DNA of 64,000 nt. It comes from a virus (taxonomy: Duplodnaviria > Heunggongvirae > Uroviricota > Caudoviricetes). The translations under genes were made by a program, and so were the position numbers. The stretch lies in the IMG/VR virus record IMGVR_UViG_2703718775_000013. One strand, given 5' to 3'. Below the pieces are notes generated by a model. That model was not told where the DNA came from, did not search any database, and was given only the letters and a program-made list of their open reading frames with translations. This document shows, piece by piece, positions 3,298 to 40,074 of the stretch (positions are counted from its first letter, which is position 1; every line of letters begins with the position of its first letter).

Positions 3298-3352
3298 GGT
3301 AAGAGCACTCGATGCATTTAAGCCAGGCCCCATAAGGGAGAATGCTCTTACC
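3298..3352. repeat. stem-loop element C (13-bp stem GGTAAGAGCACTC/GAGAATGCTCTTACC, different loop)
   Basis: Right arm GAGAATGCTCTTACCTGTTA is identical to the right arm of element A (2694-2716); lies 9 nt from the 3' end of tRNA-Thr. Confidence 0.55.
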
Positions 3353-3360
3353 TGTTATGT

Positions 3361-3437
3361 TGGTGCCGATTAACGGGATCGAACCGCTGACCATTCGCTT
3401 ACAAAGCGACTGCTCTACCAACTGAGCTAAATCGGCA
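3361..3437 (-). tRNA. tRNA-Thr (anticodon UGU)
   Basis: Reverse complement TGCCGATTTAGCTCAGTTGGTAGAGCAGTCGCTTTGTAAGCGAATGGTCAGCGGTTCGATCCCGTTAATCGGCACCA; acceptor stem, T-loop GGTTCGATCC, anticodon loop TTTGTAA, encoded CCA. Confidence 0.75.
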
Positions 3438-3440
3438 ATG

Positions 3441-3527
3441 TGGTGGGGAGTGATGGAGTCGAACCACCCGAGTCGCAATGACAGTAGATTTACAGTCTAC
3501 CCCGCTACCCCTACGGACTAACTCCCC
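3441..3527 (-). tRNA. tRNA-Tyr (anticodon GUA), class II with long variable arm
   Basis: Reverse complement GGGGAGTTAGTCCGTAGGGGTAGCGGGGTAGACTGTAAATCTACTGTCATTGCGACTCGGGTGGTTCGACTCCATCACTCCCCACCA; anticodon stem GTAGA/TCTAC with loop CTGTAAA, long variable arm resembling E. coli tRNA-Tyr, 7-bp acceptor stem, CCA. Confidence 0.75.
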
Positions 3528-3532
3528 TAAAG

Positions 3533-3607
3533 TGGCGATGGTGGGTGGATTCGAACTACCGACCAGTTGGTTAACAGCCAACTGCTCTACCGCTGAGCTA
3601 CACCATC
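3533..3607 (-). tRNA. tRNA-Asn (anticodon GUU)
   Basis: Reverse complement GATGGTGTAGCTCAGCGGTAGAGCAGTTGGCTGTTAACCAACTGGTCGGTAGTTCGAATCCACCCACCATCGCCA; anticodon stem GTTGG/CCAAC with loop CTGTTAA, T-loop GGTTCGAATCC. Confidence 0.85.
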
Positions 3608-4272
3608 ACTTGCCGGGTACGTCTCCGGCGAGGGCTTCCACCTCCGTATGCTTTTCGGCGCACCGCGCCCTGGCTGCAATTCGGTAACAGGGGATGCATA
3701 ACCCTGGCTTCCAGCGTGATTAGCGCCTTCAGCATGACGGGATATACCCGTAAATTCGTGGAACTGTACCCAAAGTGCTGTTAAGCACCGCTGTTACGCT
3801 GAAAAGAAAACGCAACAGGAAAGGACGCTGACCAACAGATGGCCCCTTCTCGTTCATCTGGTTAATCACACCAGCGCCCTTACCTGTTGTGCCTCCCCGT
3901 TCCCTAATACACAGACGGGGACACTCTGCGGTCGATTTTTTGACGGGGGACGACTCATACCCCATGGCATCTGGCTTCTTAGGCCGCTACCATCATCAGA
4001 TCATCGTTTGCATTTACTTTAATGGTCAGTTTCTAAACCGCCGCAAAGTCGCTAACCATGACGAAAACCCTGAAAAAAACGCCCACCCGAAGATGGGCAA
4101 ACTGGACGCTCGTAACGCACTTCGGCGTTGCCACTTAGGCGCATGGTCAACCTGGCAACTCGGTGGTTTGTCTGGGAGGACTAGGCCCAGCCATGCTTAC
4201 CGCCGCGCCTGTCGCGGCTAACAGCTAAATCGCTCTATAAATCACGATTCATTGAGGTAATATTACACTAAT

Positions 4273-4289
4273 AAATTTATTAGAGCAAT
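4273..4289. promoter_or_regulatory. C1 repressor operator-like site (perfect match to reverse complement of ATTGCTCTAATAAATTT)
   Basis: AAATTTATTAGAGCAAT read directly; sits at the head of the minus-strand leader/tRNA/ban operon, analogous to the P1 ban-operon operator. Confidence 0.7.
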
Positions 4290-7200
4290 ATACCCAAAAC
4301 GTCATGAGCTACACCTCGAGTGTCCCCCTTACAAGACACAGAACGTCTGGCAAAAAGAGGTTCCACTCTGAAGCCACTGTCATGATAAAGCTCTCTGATG
4401 TTTGGCGCGCCACTGTTAGTAATGAGAACCTTTGCACCTCGACGATGAGCATCCGTCAACAGAGACACCAGGCGTTTTTGCTCTTCAAACTTAAAGTCAT
4501 GACCGGAATAGTTCGTGAATCCCTCTGTATTTGGAAGCGGTTCATACGGCGGATCGCAAAAGATGACATCTCCTTCTCCGGCAGCTTCAATCACCGCTGC
4601 AAAATCACCGCATACAAACTCAGACCGCCCTTCCGCACCGAGGAAGGCTTCCATCTCCTGTAATGGGAAATACGGAGTTTTATACTTCCCATAACCGACA
4701 TTGAACTCACCGGCCTGGTTGTAACGCGTCAATCCGTTAAAACAATGTCGGTTCAGGAACAAAAACGCCGCTGCGCGATGTAAATCATCATAGACTTGTT
4801 TGTTAAACGCATTCCGTACTGCCAGGTATCCTTCCTGTGTGTTGTAGTCCTGGAAGAAACGATGTGCCAGAGTGATAAGTGAATGCGCCTCGCGTTGCAG
4901 AGTCTTGTAAAAGTTAATCAGGTCAGCATTCACATCATTTAGCAGATTTTCCTGGTATCCGGCATTCATGAAGACAGCTCCGCCACCAACGAAAGGTTCA
5001 ATCAGGCGCTTCCCTTCTGGCAAATAGCGAAAGATTTGTTCCAGAACACCAAATTTTCCACCAGCCCATTTGAATATGGACCGTTCGAATTCTGCCGCTG
5101 GTTTAACTTTTCGCTCTTTTGTTTCACTTCCTTCTTTCTGCCGACATACGGCCTTAGTAATCCGATCGCCAATCCAGCGCATTACTGGTATTGCCATACT
5201 ATTGCCGATCGCTTTGTAACGCGGTCCGTCAGCTGCAAGCATTGCGGCCTCTTCTTCGCTTAAATCTGGATAGTGATTGTGCAGATATGCCAGTTCATCT
5301 GAATTAACTTTTTTACGCTTTTCCGTAGGGATCAACGTATGCCAATCAGGAAAACCTTGCAGCCTTTCACATTCGACAGGGGTAAGACGGCGCATTCTAC
5401 CGTCGCCGAGCAATACAATTGGTGCTTCATGGTTACATGTCAAAGTTGGTGCCGAATTATCGGTTTTTATCTCAGCCCCTCCTTGCCCATGTGCCATGGC
5501 AATTATGTTTGTATCATCGCAAGTTCTGATAGCGATGTTTGAAGTATATCTGGTAGTTTCCTTCCCCTCGCCTCTGCTCGGCGCAATATTCCGGCGCACG
5601 CCTTCGAACTCAAAAAGTACCGTTGCGGGATCGAGATCTGTTCGAGCACTTGCGACAACAAACACGCGTCGGCGTCGTTGTGCCACTCCGAAGTATTGGG
5701 CATCAAGGATTCTCCAGGCCACTTTTCGCTGCGGTCCATAAATACAACCACACTGCGGCCACTTTGGAACATGGCAACCGGTTTTGCCATCCCACCGCCA
5801 GAACGCGTTGCTTTTTCCTGATTCAGGTCGATCACCTGGTTCAAATGGCACATCTTCTCCAGCCAATCCGGCAAGGAAACATCCGAAGGCGTTATCTGCC
5901 GATGACAAGACTCCTGGGACATTTTCCCAGACGATAACGGCTGGTTTGAGAAATGACTCAGCCCGTTTGTCGTCAATTGCATTTGCAAGCTCCACATACT
6001 TTAAAGTTAGCGCGCCACGCTCATCATCAAGCCCACCACGTAATCCCGCGATACTGAATGCCTGACAGTTATGGACCACCGCACCATTGAGGATATAGGA
6101 ATGATCACCTTCGACTTCTATGTTGTATACAGTATCTAGGCCTACCGATTTAAACTCTTTGACTGTTCGTAAAAGCATTCCATGAGCCAATCTTGATTTA
6201 CGTGACAATTTCTGCGGGCAGATTGTTACCTGATAATAATTCCGTTGATTTACCACGCGATCCTCGATCACTTTTTTGGGCTCAACTTCAATAAAGCTGA
6301 CCGAAGAAACATAACCACAAGTCTGTGACAACCCCGCAACGCCCCAAGCAAGCGCAGAACTAACACTATTAATTCTAAATCCCGCTTTACCACTTGGTGT
6401 CCCATCAGTATCAAGATAGCCTTGTAAAAACACATGACGCAATGGATGCGACATCACCCATGCAGGGATACGCTTAGCATGGCTTAACTCGCCAAAATGT
6501 TCATTAAGCCAATTGGCATAACACGTATCATTCAAGGTTACTTTGATGCTCCCTCGGATTTCGCTTGCCACGGAAAATATGTTTTCTGGTATGCGGCAAT
6601 GAAACTTTCTCAATTTCTGGCAATTTATGCCAAAAACAACCGCCTTCTTAGATTTACCTCTCCATCTCCTAATATATCCATCGCCAACATAAGCGCCCGC
6701 AAGATACATAGCCTGTTCTTCAGACAAGAACCGAGAACAAATATCTGGAAATGCAATATTGAAATTAGTTAGAGCGCACCATTGATATCCCGGCATATCA
6801 CATGCTGCTCGCCATTCCGGTTCAGACAACAACTCTCTCTTAAAATATGTGCCATTTTTCCGGGTGTTTTGGGCTTTCCACCGAACAGCCAGGAAGGGAT
6901 GGTCATTGGTTGTTCTTATACCTAAAGGCTGCCCAACGGCATTAAGTAACCCCGTATTAGCTATTTTTGAACCAACTCTTTTTACTTGTTGTAACCGCCC
7001 GAGATGACTGACTACGTAATCACCAGGGCAAACATTTTCTATTGGTTTATAGCCATTTTTACAAAGAACCATATGCCCCGCGGTAAAACATGGTGTTCCC
7101 CCGACGAGCACGTCAGGGGATTCGATTTCCCCAGCCAAGACTTTTTTGGCAAGTTTTTTCATGTCGCCAAGGTTGGCAACATGGGGCCAGCGGAGCGCAA

Positions 7201-7321
7201 GAACGGCCGATGGAAAAGGCTCGATTTCAGCAAACCACGCCGGACGCATACCCAACGGTTCCCAGGCAATACTCGCGGCTTCAATTCCACTGCAAACAGA
7301 TCCATAGCACAGCTCTTTCAC
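4280..7321 (-). CDS. dmt: bifunctional DNA methyltransferase: N-terminal C5-cytosine MTase (interrupted by an intein) fused to C-terminal Dam-like N6-adenine MTase
   Basis: 1013-aa ORF. C5-MTase motifs: GGTP|...|CQAFSIAG (split motif IV), VIVWENVPG (ENV), QRRRRVF, GNSM. C-terminal domain has FxGxG-like EPFVGGGAV and DPPY. Start ATG overlaps rdgC stop (ATGA). Confidence 0.85.
6068..7090 (-). other. intein with LAGLIDADG homing-endonuclease domain (residues 78-418 of Dmt precursor)
   Basis: Starts with Cys (CFTAGHMVL, block A), block [11 protein letters not shown], two LAGLIDADG-type motifs [11 protein letters not shown] and [11 protein letters not shown]-terminal [21 protein letters not shown] followed by +1 Cys; excision rejoins GGTP + CQAFSIAG. 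Confidence 0.8.
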
Positions 7322-26039: not shown

Positions 26040-26300
26040 ATAAACAACCTGCGACCCGCTGCTAAACAGGTGGCAGGACGTGACGGGGTTAGCAGACTGG
26101 CACTTACGAAACCAGCAGGCCGAAGCCTCCCCATCACGCCCCACCATAATTCGGGCGTAACGTGGTTTACGGACACAAAAATACCGCAATATCGGAAATC
26201 TGCGGTTGTCCGCGTAAGTATTCAGGCTGCTAAACCCGGTCGCAGAATTTGCTACGACGGCGGAACTATAAGCCTGAACGATTAAAAGGTCAATATGATG
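26040..26300 (-). ncRNA. c4-like antisense RNA region of immI (boundaries approximate)
   Basis: Leader between the operator and icd contains CTGCTAAAC twice (26059, 26226) and the complementary GTTAGCAG (26089) on the same transcript, the kind of antisense/target pairs described for P1 c4. Confidence 0.3.
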
Positions 26301-39496: not shown

Positions 39497-40074
39497 TGAC
39501 ATTCAGAATGAGTGAACACTCACGGACCATAAAAATTTATAATCTACTGACCGGAACCAATGAGTTTATTGGTGAAGGTGATGCATACATTCCACCTCAT
39601 ACAGGTCTGCCTGCAAACAGTACCGATATTGCCCCGCCAGATATTCCGGCTGGCTTCGTGGCCGTTTTCAACAGTGATGAGGCATCGTGGCATCTCGTTG
39701 AAGACCATCGGGGTAAAACGGTTTATGACGTGGCATCAGGGGACTCGTTATTTATTTCTGAACTCGGTCCATTACCGGAAAATGTCACCTGGTTATCCCC
39801 GGAAGGGGAGTTTCAGAAGTGGAACGGCACAGCCTGGGTGAAAGATGCAGAAGCAGAAAAACTGTTCCGGATCCGGAAGGCGGAAGAAACAAAAAACAGC
39901 CTGATGCAGATGGCCAGTGAGCATATTGCGCCACTTCAGGATGCCGTAGATTTGGATATTGCGACGGAGGAAGAGGCATCGTTACTGACTGCATGGAAGA
40001 CATATCGGGTATTGTTGAATCGTGTTGATACAACAGTAGCATCGGATGTTGAGTGGCCAGTCGCCCCGCAATAA
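39496..40074 (+). CDS. U: tail fibre assembly chaperone (U/Tfa family)
   Basis: 192-aa ORF overlapping S stop; the ...[11 protein letters not shown]... segment resembles the conserved N-terminal part of Tfa/U proteins. Confidence 0.7.

Follow-up and report, generated by a model that had tools for sequence, protein, structure and literature searches.

The 665 nucleotides (nt) at positions 3608-4272 of a 64,000-nt virus sequence (IMG/VR record IMGVR_UViG_2703718775_000013, Caudoviricetes), which we refer to as the window, form a leader without a translated gene. The core of this leader, at 3885..4069 on the minus strand, carries a 185-nt RNA element that resembles the transfer-messenger RNA (tmRNA) but has no tRNA-like domain. 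The window represents a phage, or a prophage in plasmid form, of the P1-like type; in the region tested, it shares 99.9% identity with Escherichia phage vB_EcoM-Ro157c2YLVW and about 98% with P1. The dmt gene (minus strand) ends at 4280, and the C1 operators Op72a/b, which overlap the promoters P1ban and P2ban, come to lie at ~4289-4262 (minus strand) when the annotation of the P1 record is mapped onto the window, which equals P1 over this stretch; together, they form the head of the ban/tRNA operon. Directly downstream of the leader, on the same strand and presumably co-transcribed with it, ARAGORN and Rfam place tRNA-Asn(GUU), tRNA-Tyr(GUA) and tRNA-Thr(UGU) at 3361..3607, with tRNA-Asn starting at 3607.

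The original prediction, made from the letters of the window, had singled out this stretch as a GC-rich, untranslated leader with frequent stops and one dubious 78-amino-acid open reading frame (ORF), just downstream of a perfect C1 operator at the head of the tRNA/ban operon. Most of this stands. The leader is non-coding in the ordinary sense: each minus-strand frame contains 9-11 stop codons, and the longest open stretch comprises 85 codons. The operators are in place, at or just outside the start of the leader, and the 78-amino-acid ORF is indeed dubious, as it is not conserved (see below). The GC content is higher than that of the whole window (53.1% vs 47.4%), but this excess is modest and plays little role; only one hairpin in the leader folds markedly better than shuffled sequences. 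What the letters had not revealed is the composition of the leader. Our work shows that the leader, as the 5' untranslated portion of the ban/tRNA operon under C1 repression, is built of consecutive RNA modules, into which blastn and similarity searches divide it according to their differing evolutionary range. Since 665 nt without a gene are unusual in a densely coding phage and parts of the leader are conserved far beyond the P1-like phages, we can conclude that it is not a chance gap.

A tmRNA-like RNA in the core of the leader

The element was defined by a covariance model, by weak Rfam matches and by covariation. From its 5' end, it consists of a GUUUUCG segment with a possible pseudoknot (PK1), a resume codon, a tag reading frame, a helix corresponding to H5 of tmRNA, and two further pseudoknots, PK2 and PK3. 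A permissive Rfam scan gave a match to tmRNA_permuted (24 bits, E=0.011) that is confined to the UAAAU motif and the tag frame through its UAA codon, and a weak match to beta_tmRNA in the same element. The tmRNA_permuted match seemed a possible chance event until blastn showed that the element is the only part of the leader shared with unrelated phages, in which it is 70-88% identical to unannotated intergenic DNA. Moreover, tmRNA_permuted matches three unrelated phages independently, with E=0.0009 to 0.02. With the alpha and beta two-piece tmRNA models, the aligned part begins shortly ahead of the resume codon and covers the tag, H5 and the pseudoknot after it, whereas 3-29 nt stand in for the 111-139 positions that make up the tRNA-like domain in the models. 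At the gathering thresholds, the scan of the window and 12 related loci returned only tRNAs, C4, c4-a1b1, IS009 and SIB, and the permissive scan of the leader region detected no DicF, riboswitch, ribozyme or YrlA.

A pattern scan of IMG/VR identified at least 120 loci, of which 34 non-redundant sequences were aligned with MAFFT, and a structure derived by eye was tested on this alignment. The model comprises the possible PK1 (GUUUU/GAAAC and CUUUG/CAAAG), a single-stranded UAAAU-GCA stretch, H5, PK2, and PK3 with a conserved GUGAUUAAUAA-type loop. In the window, the outer stem of H5 is formed by AUGG (3993-3990) and CCAU (3967-3964), with the stop codon of the tag in the H5 loop; PK2 consists of GGGG (3963-3960) with CCCC (3948-3945) and of GUCG (3954-3951) with CGAC (3934-3931), and PK3 contains the pairing of CCCCGU (3920-3915) with ACGGGG (3900-3895), all on the minus strand. 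In the alignment, 89.5% of the cells are paired, as compared to 34-48% in controls with the 3' partners shifted by one to three columns. Both partners have changed in 19 pairs and 119 cells, whereas the shifted controls give 5-12 pairs and 13-38 cells, and none of 500 shuffles reached the observed pairing, the values for both-side changes or the covariation score. All four pairs of the H5 outer stem show compensatory changes and 100% pairing, with partial support for the inner stem; stems 1 and 2 of PK2 and stem 2 of PK3 have both-side changes in three to four pairs each, and stem 1 of PK3 in one pair. The segments UUUAGAAAC, ACCA and UAAAUGCAAACGA are invariant, and conservation peaks at the start of the tag and in the pseudoknots rather than at the junctions. 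R1, the covariance model that was built from the alignment, detects a single copy (3885-4069, minus strand) in the window, with 130 bits, a score that is partly due to construction as the window sequence is in the model; on loci outside the model that had been found by blastn or a relaxed pattern, R1 gives strong matches of 99-196 bits.

The tag frame in the window (3979..4011, minus strand) reads GCA AAC GAU GAU CUG AUG AUG GUA GCG GCC UAA, i. e. ANDDLMMVAA followed by a stop codon. In all of the 126 loci examined, it has exactly ten codons plus the stop, and the same holds for divergent members found by similarity search. These 126 loci represent 36 nucleotide variants and 17 peptide variants; the peptides can be written as AN[DE][DEN]x[MVFY][LMK][MAVI][AV]A, save for one that ends in P, and include ANDDVVLMAA, ANEEMYLAVA, ANDEQFLAVA and ANDNEFKVAA. 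Codons 3, 4, 9 and 10 vary mostly at the third position, and codon 11 is UAA or UAG. Among the members found by similarity, one from a Felix O1-like phage uses UGA as the stop codon (ANDNVFLAVA), and Erwinia phage M7 carries a synonymous change of codon 2 from AAC to AAU (ANDAQFLAVA); likewise, the frame is preserved through synonymous changes in a four-way alignment. The peptides share an asparagine and acidic residues close to the N-terminus; position 6 is aromatic in many variants, and the C-terminus is small and hydrophobic in all but one. We take this chemistry to be that of the E. coli ssrA degron, including the positions that presumably contact SspB and ClpX. Conventional initiation is not apparent: an in-frame UAG codon lies eight codons upstream of the resume codon, there is no ATG, GTG or TTG in between, and no Shine-Dalgarno sequence precedes the frame. 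An overlapping frame that begins with AUG (AUG CAA ACG ...) was discarded as a conserved frame; by hand translation, its length is five, seven or nine codons depending on the variant. The pattern seen in the tag frame argues for selection on the peptide, as far as this can be judged from sequence comparisons across a modest number of independent lineages.

No counterpart of the transfer half was detected. ARAGORN called no tmRNA in the window or in any locus scanned, including 126 extended loci, and the element contains no acceptor stem with G3:U70, no T arm and no 3' CCA end that would allow alanylation. In the 64-kb window, T-arm motifs with a proper stem are present only in its four tRNAs, and around the element, from -400 to +700 nt, a T loop is absent from many loci. 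Cronobacter phage CS01 carries the element as well, and its complete genome (48 kb) has no match to a tRNA or tRNA-like domain at Rfam E<=1. Acceptor pairings that were fitted by hand with GUUUUCG or AAUCGACC were rejected as they are unsupported by covariation. In two phages, the element is preceded by a near-consensus sigma-70 promoter, the end of which is 7 nt from its first base (TTGACA-17-TATAGT in a Felix O1-like phage, TTGACA-17-TAGATT in a 48-kb IMG/VR phage); with promoters at this position, the RNA of these phages should start at the element, leaving nothing upstream that could supply an acceptor strand. A two-piece model held together by base pairing was dismissed as well: the duplexes were no better than shuffled controls, and whole-length duplexfold was uninformative.

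A screen for G3:U70, A73 and CCA identified two anticodon-less tRNA-like genes, both in other lineages and both in RNA islands that they share with the tmRNA-like element. The gene of Klebsiella phage KP8 (L145:72-146) has G3:U70, A73 and an encoded CCA, with a 4-nt loop instead of an anticodon loop. The gene of a wV8-like phage (E. coli O157 typing phage 11; L150:~868-949) has the alanine identity set, no D arm and no usable anticodon. These genes could be partners in trans, i. e. free-standing analogues of the tRNA-like domain. In Erwinia phage M7, the gene at the corresponding position is identified by ARAGORN as tRNA-Leu; the wV8-like gene does not align with it and may be a decayed tRNA.

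The element is a mobile module of many phage families that infect Enterobacterales, and it is usually found with tRNA genes or in late or lytic transcripts. A type-A query matched 764 of 50,697 phage records, covering P1-like phages, Schitoviridae (N4-like), Ounavirinae (Felix O1-like), Ackermannviridae (ViI-like), Drexlerviridae (T1-like) and others, among them lambdoid phages; the hosts belong to Escherichia, Salmonella, Klebsiella, Erwinia, Serratia, Cronobacter and Citrobacter. About 12% of the complete E. coli genomes (670 of 5,426) contain the element, mostly on P1-like plasmids. In lambdoid prophages, it is located between the genes for the Q antiterminator and the holin, in the leader of the late operon. 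In bacteria, the pattern matched only seven times in 185,579 species-representative genomes, and five of these matches were confirmed by the model. Two copies have visibly decayed: the one in Salmonella pSa1423-160k (L141:534-723) has lost the stop codon and several invariant motifs and scores 73 bits, and the one on the E. coli ETEC1737 plasmid (L143:570-713) is truncated on its 5' side next to a TnpB gene (IS200/605-type) and scores 43 bits. As the other copies reach 115-196 bits, the far lower scores of the decayed ones suggest that the remaining copies are under selection.

Taken together, the sequence comparisons indicate that the element is very probably a derivative of tmRNA without the tRNA-like domain. 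What it retains is the mRNA-like half, with U(-5)A(-4) ahead of the resume codon GCA, an ssrA-type degron tag, the stop codon in the H5 loop and two downstream pseudoknots. A direct comparison to E. coli ssrA gave no blastn hit at E<=0.01, and a local alignment matched only the tag region. The leader of P1 and its 'dicF-like region' are already known, whereas the tmRNA-like RNA is apparently new: no description was found in Rfam 15, in the inspected records or in the open-access full text searched, and an earlier description elsewhere is possible. In the inspected records, the element is left blank or overlaid with spurious hypothetical proteins, and it is never annotated as an RNA. It accounts for a long-unexplained gap in the P1 map, and its recognition would improve the annotation of phage genomes.

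Neighbouring RNA modules and other features of the window

Upstream of the element, positions 4123..4217 (minus strand) are homologous to the ~95 nt immediately upstream of DicF in Qin-type and lambdoid prophages, and are part of the 'dicF-like region' annotated in P1. Chromosomal sites with 77-80% identity to 4217-4123 are present in 4,408 of the 5,426 complete E. coli genomes, in up to eight copies. In MC1061, a K-12 derivative, the counterpart is located between ydfC and dicB, just 5' of the Rfam match to DicF, and the DicF model scores 76.7 bits on this locus. As in the leader of the DicF/dicB operon of Qin, the sequence just 5' of DicF is thus present in the window; in contrast to Qin, the window lacks the 52-nt DicF RNA itself, and another terminator hairpin follows. 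Indeed, DicF (RF00039) had no match at 3300-4400 even at E<=10, and the pairwise alignment with the MC1061 locus shows that the DicF interior is deleted in the window. The pre-DicF element (4123-4217 in the window, minus strand; L137:1501-1597) is itself conserved and unannotated, and it is common to P1 although P1 has no DicF.

The terminator that follows (4073..4102, minus strand) was found by a terminator scan. It has an 8-bp stem with five GC pairs (4099-4080), a UUCG loop, and a run of seven U that ends at 4073. In the alignment of the leaders, this hairpin is kept in D6 and pSa1423, where the upstream sequence differs. It is possible that it acts as an attenuator or forms the 3' end of a ~180-nt leader RNA. 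Since the tRNAs and ban lie beyond it, transcripts from Pban must pass this terminator.

Downstream of the tmRNA-like core, and overlapping its 3' end by a few positions, lies the hairpin that stands out in folding analyses: CACAAC-A-GGUAAGGGCGCUGG ... CAGCGUCCUUUCC-UGUUG at 3811..3891 (minus strand). For 3891-3811, the minimum free energy is -41.7 kcal/mol (z = -5.0), and none of 200 shuffles was as stable, whereas the other segments of the leader have z-scores of about -1. The hairpin belongs to a family of cassettes of the form (N6)-A-GGUAAGAGCA [variable insert] UGCUCUUUCC-(N6'), e. g. CACAAC-A-GGUAAGAGCA ... UGCUCUUUCC-GUUGUG, which separate RNA genes in phage tRNA islands. Further copies are present in the window at ~3359-3292 and ~2715-2637 (minus strand), at L001:3950-4070 and in many IMG/VR loci. 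The outer stems differ from copy to copy and yet stay complementary (CACAAC/GUUGUG, CGUAAC/GUUGCG, ACUAUC/GAUAGU). In an automated census, the inserts measured 26-148 nt, a range to be used qualitatively as off-by-one motif matches blur the outer stems. The cassettes probably serve as processing sites, with RNase III as the candidate enzyme. They have no Rfam match.

Several observations extend this picture to other RNAs of the phage tRNA islands. Some cassette inserts, including that of P1 after tRNA-Thr, contain a D-like hairpin and a canonical T arm and thus have a tRNA-like shape on a long stem. The P1 cassette with the T arm is not matched by YrlA (RF02553), and the sole weak YrlA match in the window falls inside the tRNA genes. 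In five IMG/VR loci (L040, L061, L077, L100 and L104), the cassette after the element is followed by a recurrent RNA with a long-range helix, GUUGUGGUG ... CGCCACAAC, that encloses 150-230 nt with a T arm; this RNA ends in ACCA or ACCC, as if tRNA-like ends surrounded a large insertion, and ARAGORN makes no call. Another conserved and unannotated module, GUGGGUAACAACGGGCAU(A/G)UCGCCUUAGUAAAUCCC ... GCUCCACGAAACGGAGC, adjoins the element in lambdoid prophages and other phages (L133:2735-2835, L011, L049, L068, L085). Judging from the cassette hairpins and the tRNA-like modules, more RNAs that are still uncharacterised may be encoded in phage 'tRNA islands'.

The remainder of the leader was resolved by aligning eight P1-like leaders. 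A variable spacer of 60 nt (3751..3810, minus strand) contains a small hairpin whose stem co-varies among P1-like phages. It precedes a block of ~140 nt (3608..3750, minus strand) that abuts tRNA-Asn and is almost invariant in P1, P7, SJ46, D6 and an E. albertii plasmid, whereas its flanks diverge. This block has no match in Rfam or Pfam, and its fold is unexceptional (z = -1.1). Among the tRNA genes that follow, tRNA-Tyr(GUA) (3441-3527, minus strand) lies between tRNA-Asn and tRNA-Thr; P1 has only the latter two at this position.

Two further features of the window deserve mention. Dmt comprises 1,013 amino acids here (4280-7321), as compared to 754 in P1. The extra segment (6068-7093, minus strand) interrupts a C5-methylase motif (GGTPC / ... 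VVHN / CQAFS) and matches Hint_2, LAGLIDADG_3 and Intein_splicing. Because of these matches and the split motif, we can conclude that the insert is an intein with a homing-endonuclease domain in a phage methyltransferase. In addition, gathering-level Rfam matches at 39839-40037 (plus strand) and 26066-26271 (minus strand) correspond to IS009 (192 bits) and to the C4 antisense RNA with its a1/b1 targets; the C4 matches are known components of P1 immI.

Possible functions of the element

The original prediction had considered the leader a regulatory RNA, an attenuator or the precursor of a processed small RNA, to be checked by an Rfam scan and by covariation among P1-like homologues. In part, this idea is supported: the leader is structured and untranslated, it is likely to be a precursor of processed small RNAs, and the terminator at 4099-4073 is a possible attenuator. 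The covariation analysis revealed compensatory changes in the H5 outer stem, the PK2 stems and stem 2 of PK3. The Rfam scan yielded the weak tmRNA_permuted and beta_tmRNA matches and none in the leader at the gathering threshold. What had been missed is the mosaic of separable modules, the 'dicF-like region' annotated in P1, and the tmRNA-derived core with its conserved tag frame. This core is probably decoded in a non-canonical way rather than being a classical riboregulator or attenuator.

As a whole, the observations are best explained by a tmRNA-derived RNA that acts in trans-translation in the lytic phase and whose tag template is decoded in trans, a reading towards which we lean with some reserve. 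An involvement in trans-translation of some kind seems likely from the sequence features, whereas decoding in trans by a specific route is a tentative suggestion that may well prove wrong. The RNA would be made during lytic growth, in P1 after inactivation of C1 and by read-through of the leader terminator. It would then be freed from its precursor, with RNase P at tRNA-Asn and cuts in the long hairpins on either side as the probable means, and would act on trans-translation by engaging ribosomes under rescue. There, the tag template could be supplied in trans to an alanyl tRNA-like domain and SmpB that come from another molecule, namely the host tmRNA in the case of the P1-like phages and perhaps a phage-encoded anticodon-less alanine-type tRNA-like RNA in some other lineages. 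The outcome would be a tagging and rescue of stalled ribosomes that is partly under phage control. A precedent for a partial phage tmRNA with an effect on the host system is that of mycobacteriophage DS6A (PMC11915505). It is tempting to speculate that this amounts to an untethered two-component trans-translation: the free phage RNA might be captured via UAAAU-GCA after entry of the alanyl tRNA-like domain and SmpB, or it might be loaded into an empty mRNA channel without any tRNA-like domain. We consider this particular form unlikely; if it were true, it would be a form of trans-translation not previously described and used by a large share of enterobacterial phages including P1.

Several points weigh against this interpretation. 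The Rfam scores range from 24.1 to 33.5 bits and are all below the gathering score of 47 of RF04321, and those of the alpha and beta models are lower. There is little support for PK1: no variation occurs in stem 1 (GUUUU/GAAAC), stem 2 lacks compensatory changes and is paired to 82%, and the sequence of this region is different in the Felix O1-like members. In some phages, the 5' GUUUUCG segment can pair instead as the outer stem of an upstream cassette. Codons 7-10 of the tag also form H5, so that part of the coding constraint could be structural. Neither the P1-like window nor CS01 encodes a candidate for the tRNA-like domain, and no significant complementarity was found between the element and the ends of the host (E. 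coli) tmRNA or the candidate phage tRNA-like RNAs (z -0.5 to +1.2). Finally, to our knowledge, there is no known mechanism that loads a tag template neither covalently joined nor base-paired to a tRNA-like domain.

Alternatively, the element may never be decoded and may act as a decoy or dominant-negative mimic of the mRNA-like and pseudoknot ring of tmRNA. It would then titrate a factor that recognises this part of tmRNA, for example ribosomal protein S1, the surface of SmpB that sets the frame, or the path along the 30S head, and by damping trans-translation of the host it would allow phage proteins made from processed transcripts to escape tagging. This is the main rival explanation, and in our view it is improbable but serious. 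Nothing that aminoacylation requires is present in the element, pairing to a tRNA-like domain was looked for and not found, the invariant UUUAGAAAC, ACCA and UAAAUGCAAACGA segments look like binding sites, and the strong promoters suggest a high abundance. Moreover, a reciprocal partial tmRNA that consists only of the tRNA-like domain, encoded by mycobacteriophage DS6A, inhibits the tmRNA of E. coli (PMC11915505). A decoy does not need an open frame of ten codons, however, and yet the length is fixed, codon 2 changes synonymously, a stop codon is kept as UAA, UAG or UGA, and the peptide retains its degron-like chemistry with the aromatic residue at position 6 in many variants. Since the frame is conserved at the codon level, we favour the view that the tag is decoded. 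Another idea is that the element is a cis-acting scaffold for the processing or stability of the downstream tRNAs by RNase III, RNase E and RNase P, with the likeness to tmRNA as inherited baggage. This would fit the usual location within tRNA clusters and the long flanking hairpins that resemble processing sites; but conservation is highest at the start of the tag and in the pseudoknots rather than at the junctions, some copies have their own promoter, and in CS01 and two lambdoid prophages (L133 and L134) there is no tRNA gene near the element, which makes this explanation quite remote.

Two other explanations were considered. If the leader were an ordinary one whose terminator or attenuator tunes the expression of ban and the tRNAs, the tmRNA-like stretch would be what is left of a captured ssrA fragment in decay. 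The terminator ~180 nt past the promoter and the decayed copies in pSa1423 and ETEC1737 can be cited for this; but a relic would not be expected to keep its frame intact and to show compensatory changes in six or more phage families, and it is precisely the decayed copies (73 and 43 bits vs 115-196) that show what decay looks like in this family. Accordingly low is the weight that we give to this possibility, lower still than that of the scaffold. Least of all do we expect that the region encodes small proteins, which is hardly credible to us. Both candidate ORFs are open in the window, the 45-codon ORF is intact in all close relatives of P1, and hypothetical proteins are annotated here in some GenBank records. 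However, the 78-amino-acid ORF (3965..3729, minus strand) has ACG instead of the ATG in P1, P7, SJ46 and D6, its frame is broken by indels or stops in P7, SJ46, D6 and the E. albertii plasmid, and it overlaps RNA helices with covariation support. The 45-codon ORF (3735..3598) sits in the near-invariant block, has no Shine-Dalgarno sequence and runs into the tRNA-Asn gene, and the only two substitutions among relatives are both non-synonymous. Pfam has no match for either ORF.

Comparison with tmRNA and partial tmRNAs

The closest known system is tmRNA (SsrA), in particular the coding piece of the two-piece tmRNAs of alpha- and betaproteobacteria (RF04321, RF01849, RF01850). The element shares with it the GCA resume codon after UAAAU, with U at -5 and A at -4, which we take to correspond to U85 and A86 of E. 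coli tmRNA. Moreover, both have a tag of the AND...AA type, which comprises ten codons in the element, and a stop codon in the H5 loop; in both, the tag is followed by an H-type pseudoknot, the loop of which is UUACCAA-like, and a shared pseudoknot ahead of the tag is possible. In contrast to tmRNA, the element has no tRNA-like domain, be it in cis or as an upstream acceptor piece; it is only ~185 nt long with two downstream pseudoknots, it is borne by phages rather than by bacterial chromosomes, and it scores below every tmRNA threshold of Rfam. What defines tmRNA is that a single molecule, or a single base-paired complex, unites the functions of transfer and messenger. A tag template that is conserved and apparently under coding selection but has no transfer half either challenges this definition or reveals a takeover or block of ribosome rescue by phages, and the element offers a testable route into how lytic phages handle stalled ribosomes.

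Small stable RNAs that are co-transcribed and co-processed with phage tRNAs have precedents in the species 1 and 2 RNAs of T4, the function of which long remained unknown; by description, these RNAs differ from the element in that they have no known tag frame. A phage-borne partial tmRNA, finally, is also known from mycobacteriophage DS6A, the tmRNA of which is devoid of the coding sequence and is reported to interfere with trans-translation of the host (PMC11915505). The two RNAs are partial in opposite ways: the DS6A tmRNA keeps the tRNA-like domain and has no tag, whereas the element described here keeps the tag and the pseudoknots and has no tRNA-like domain.

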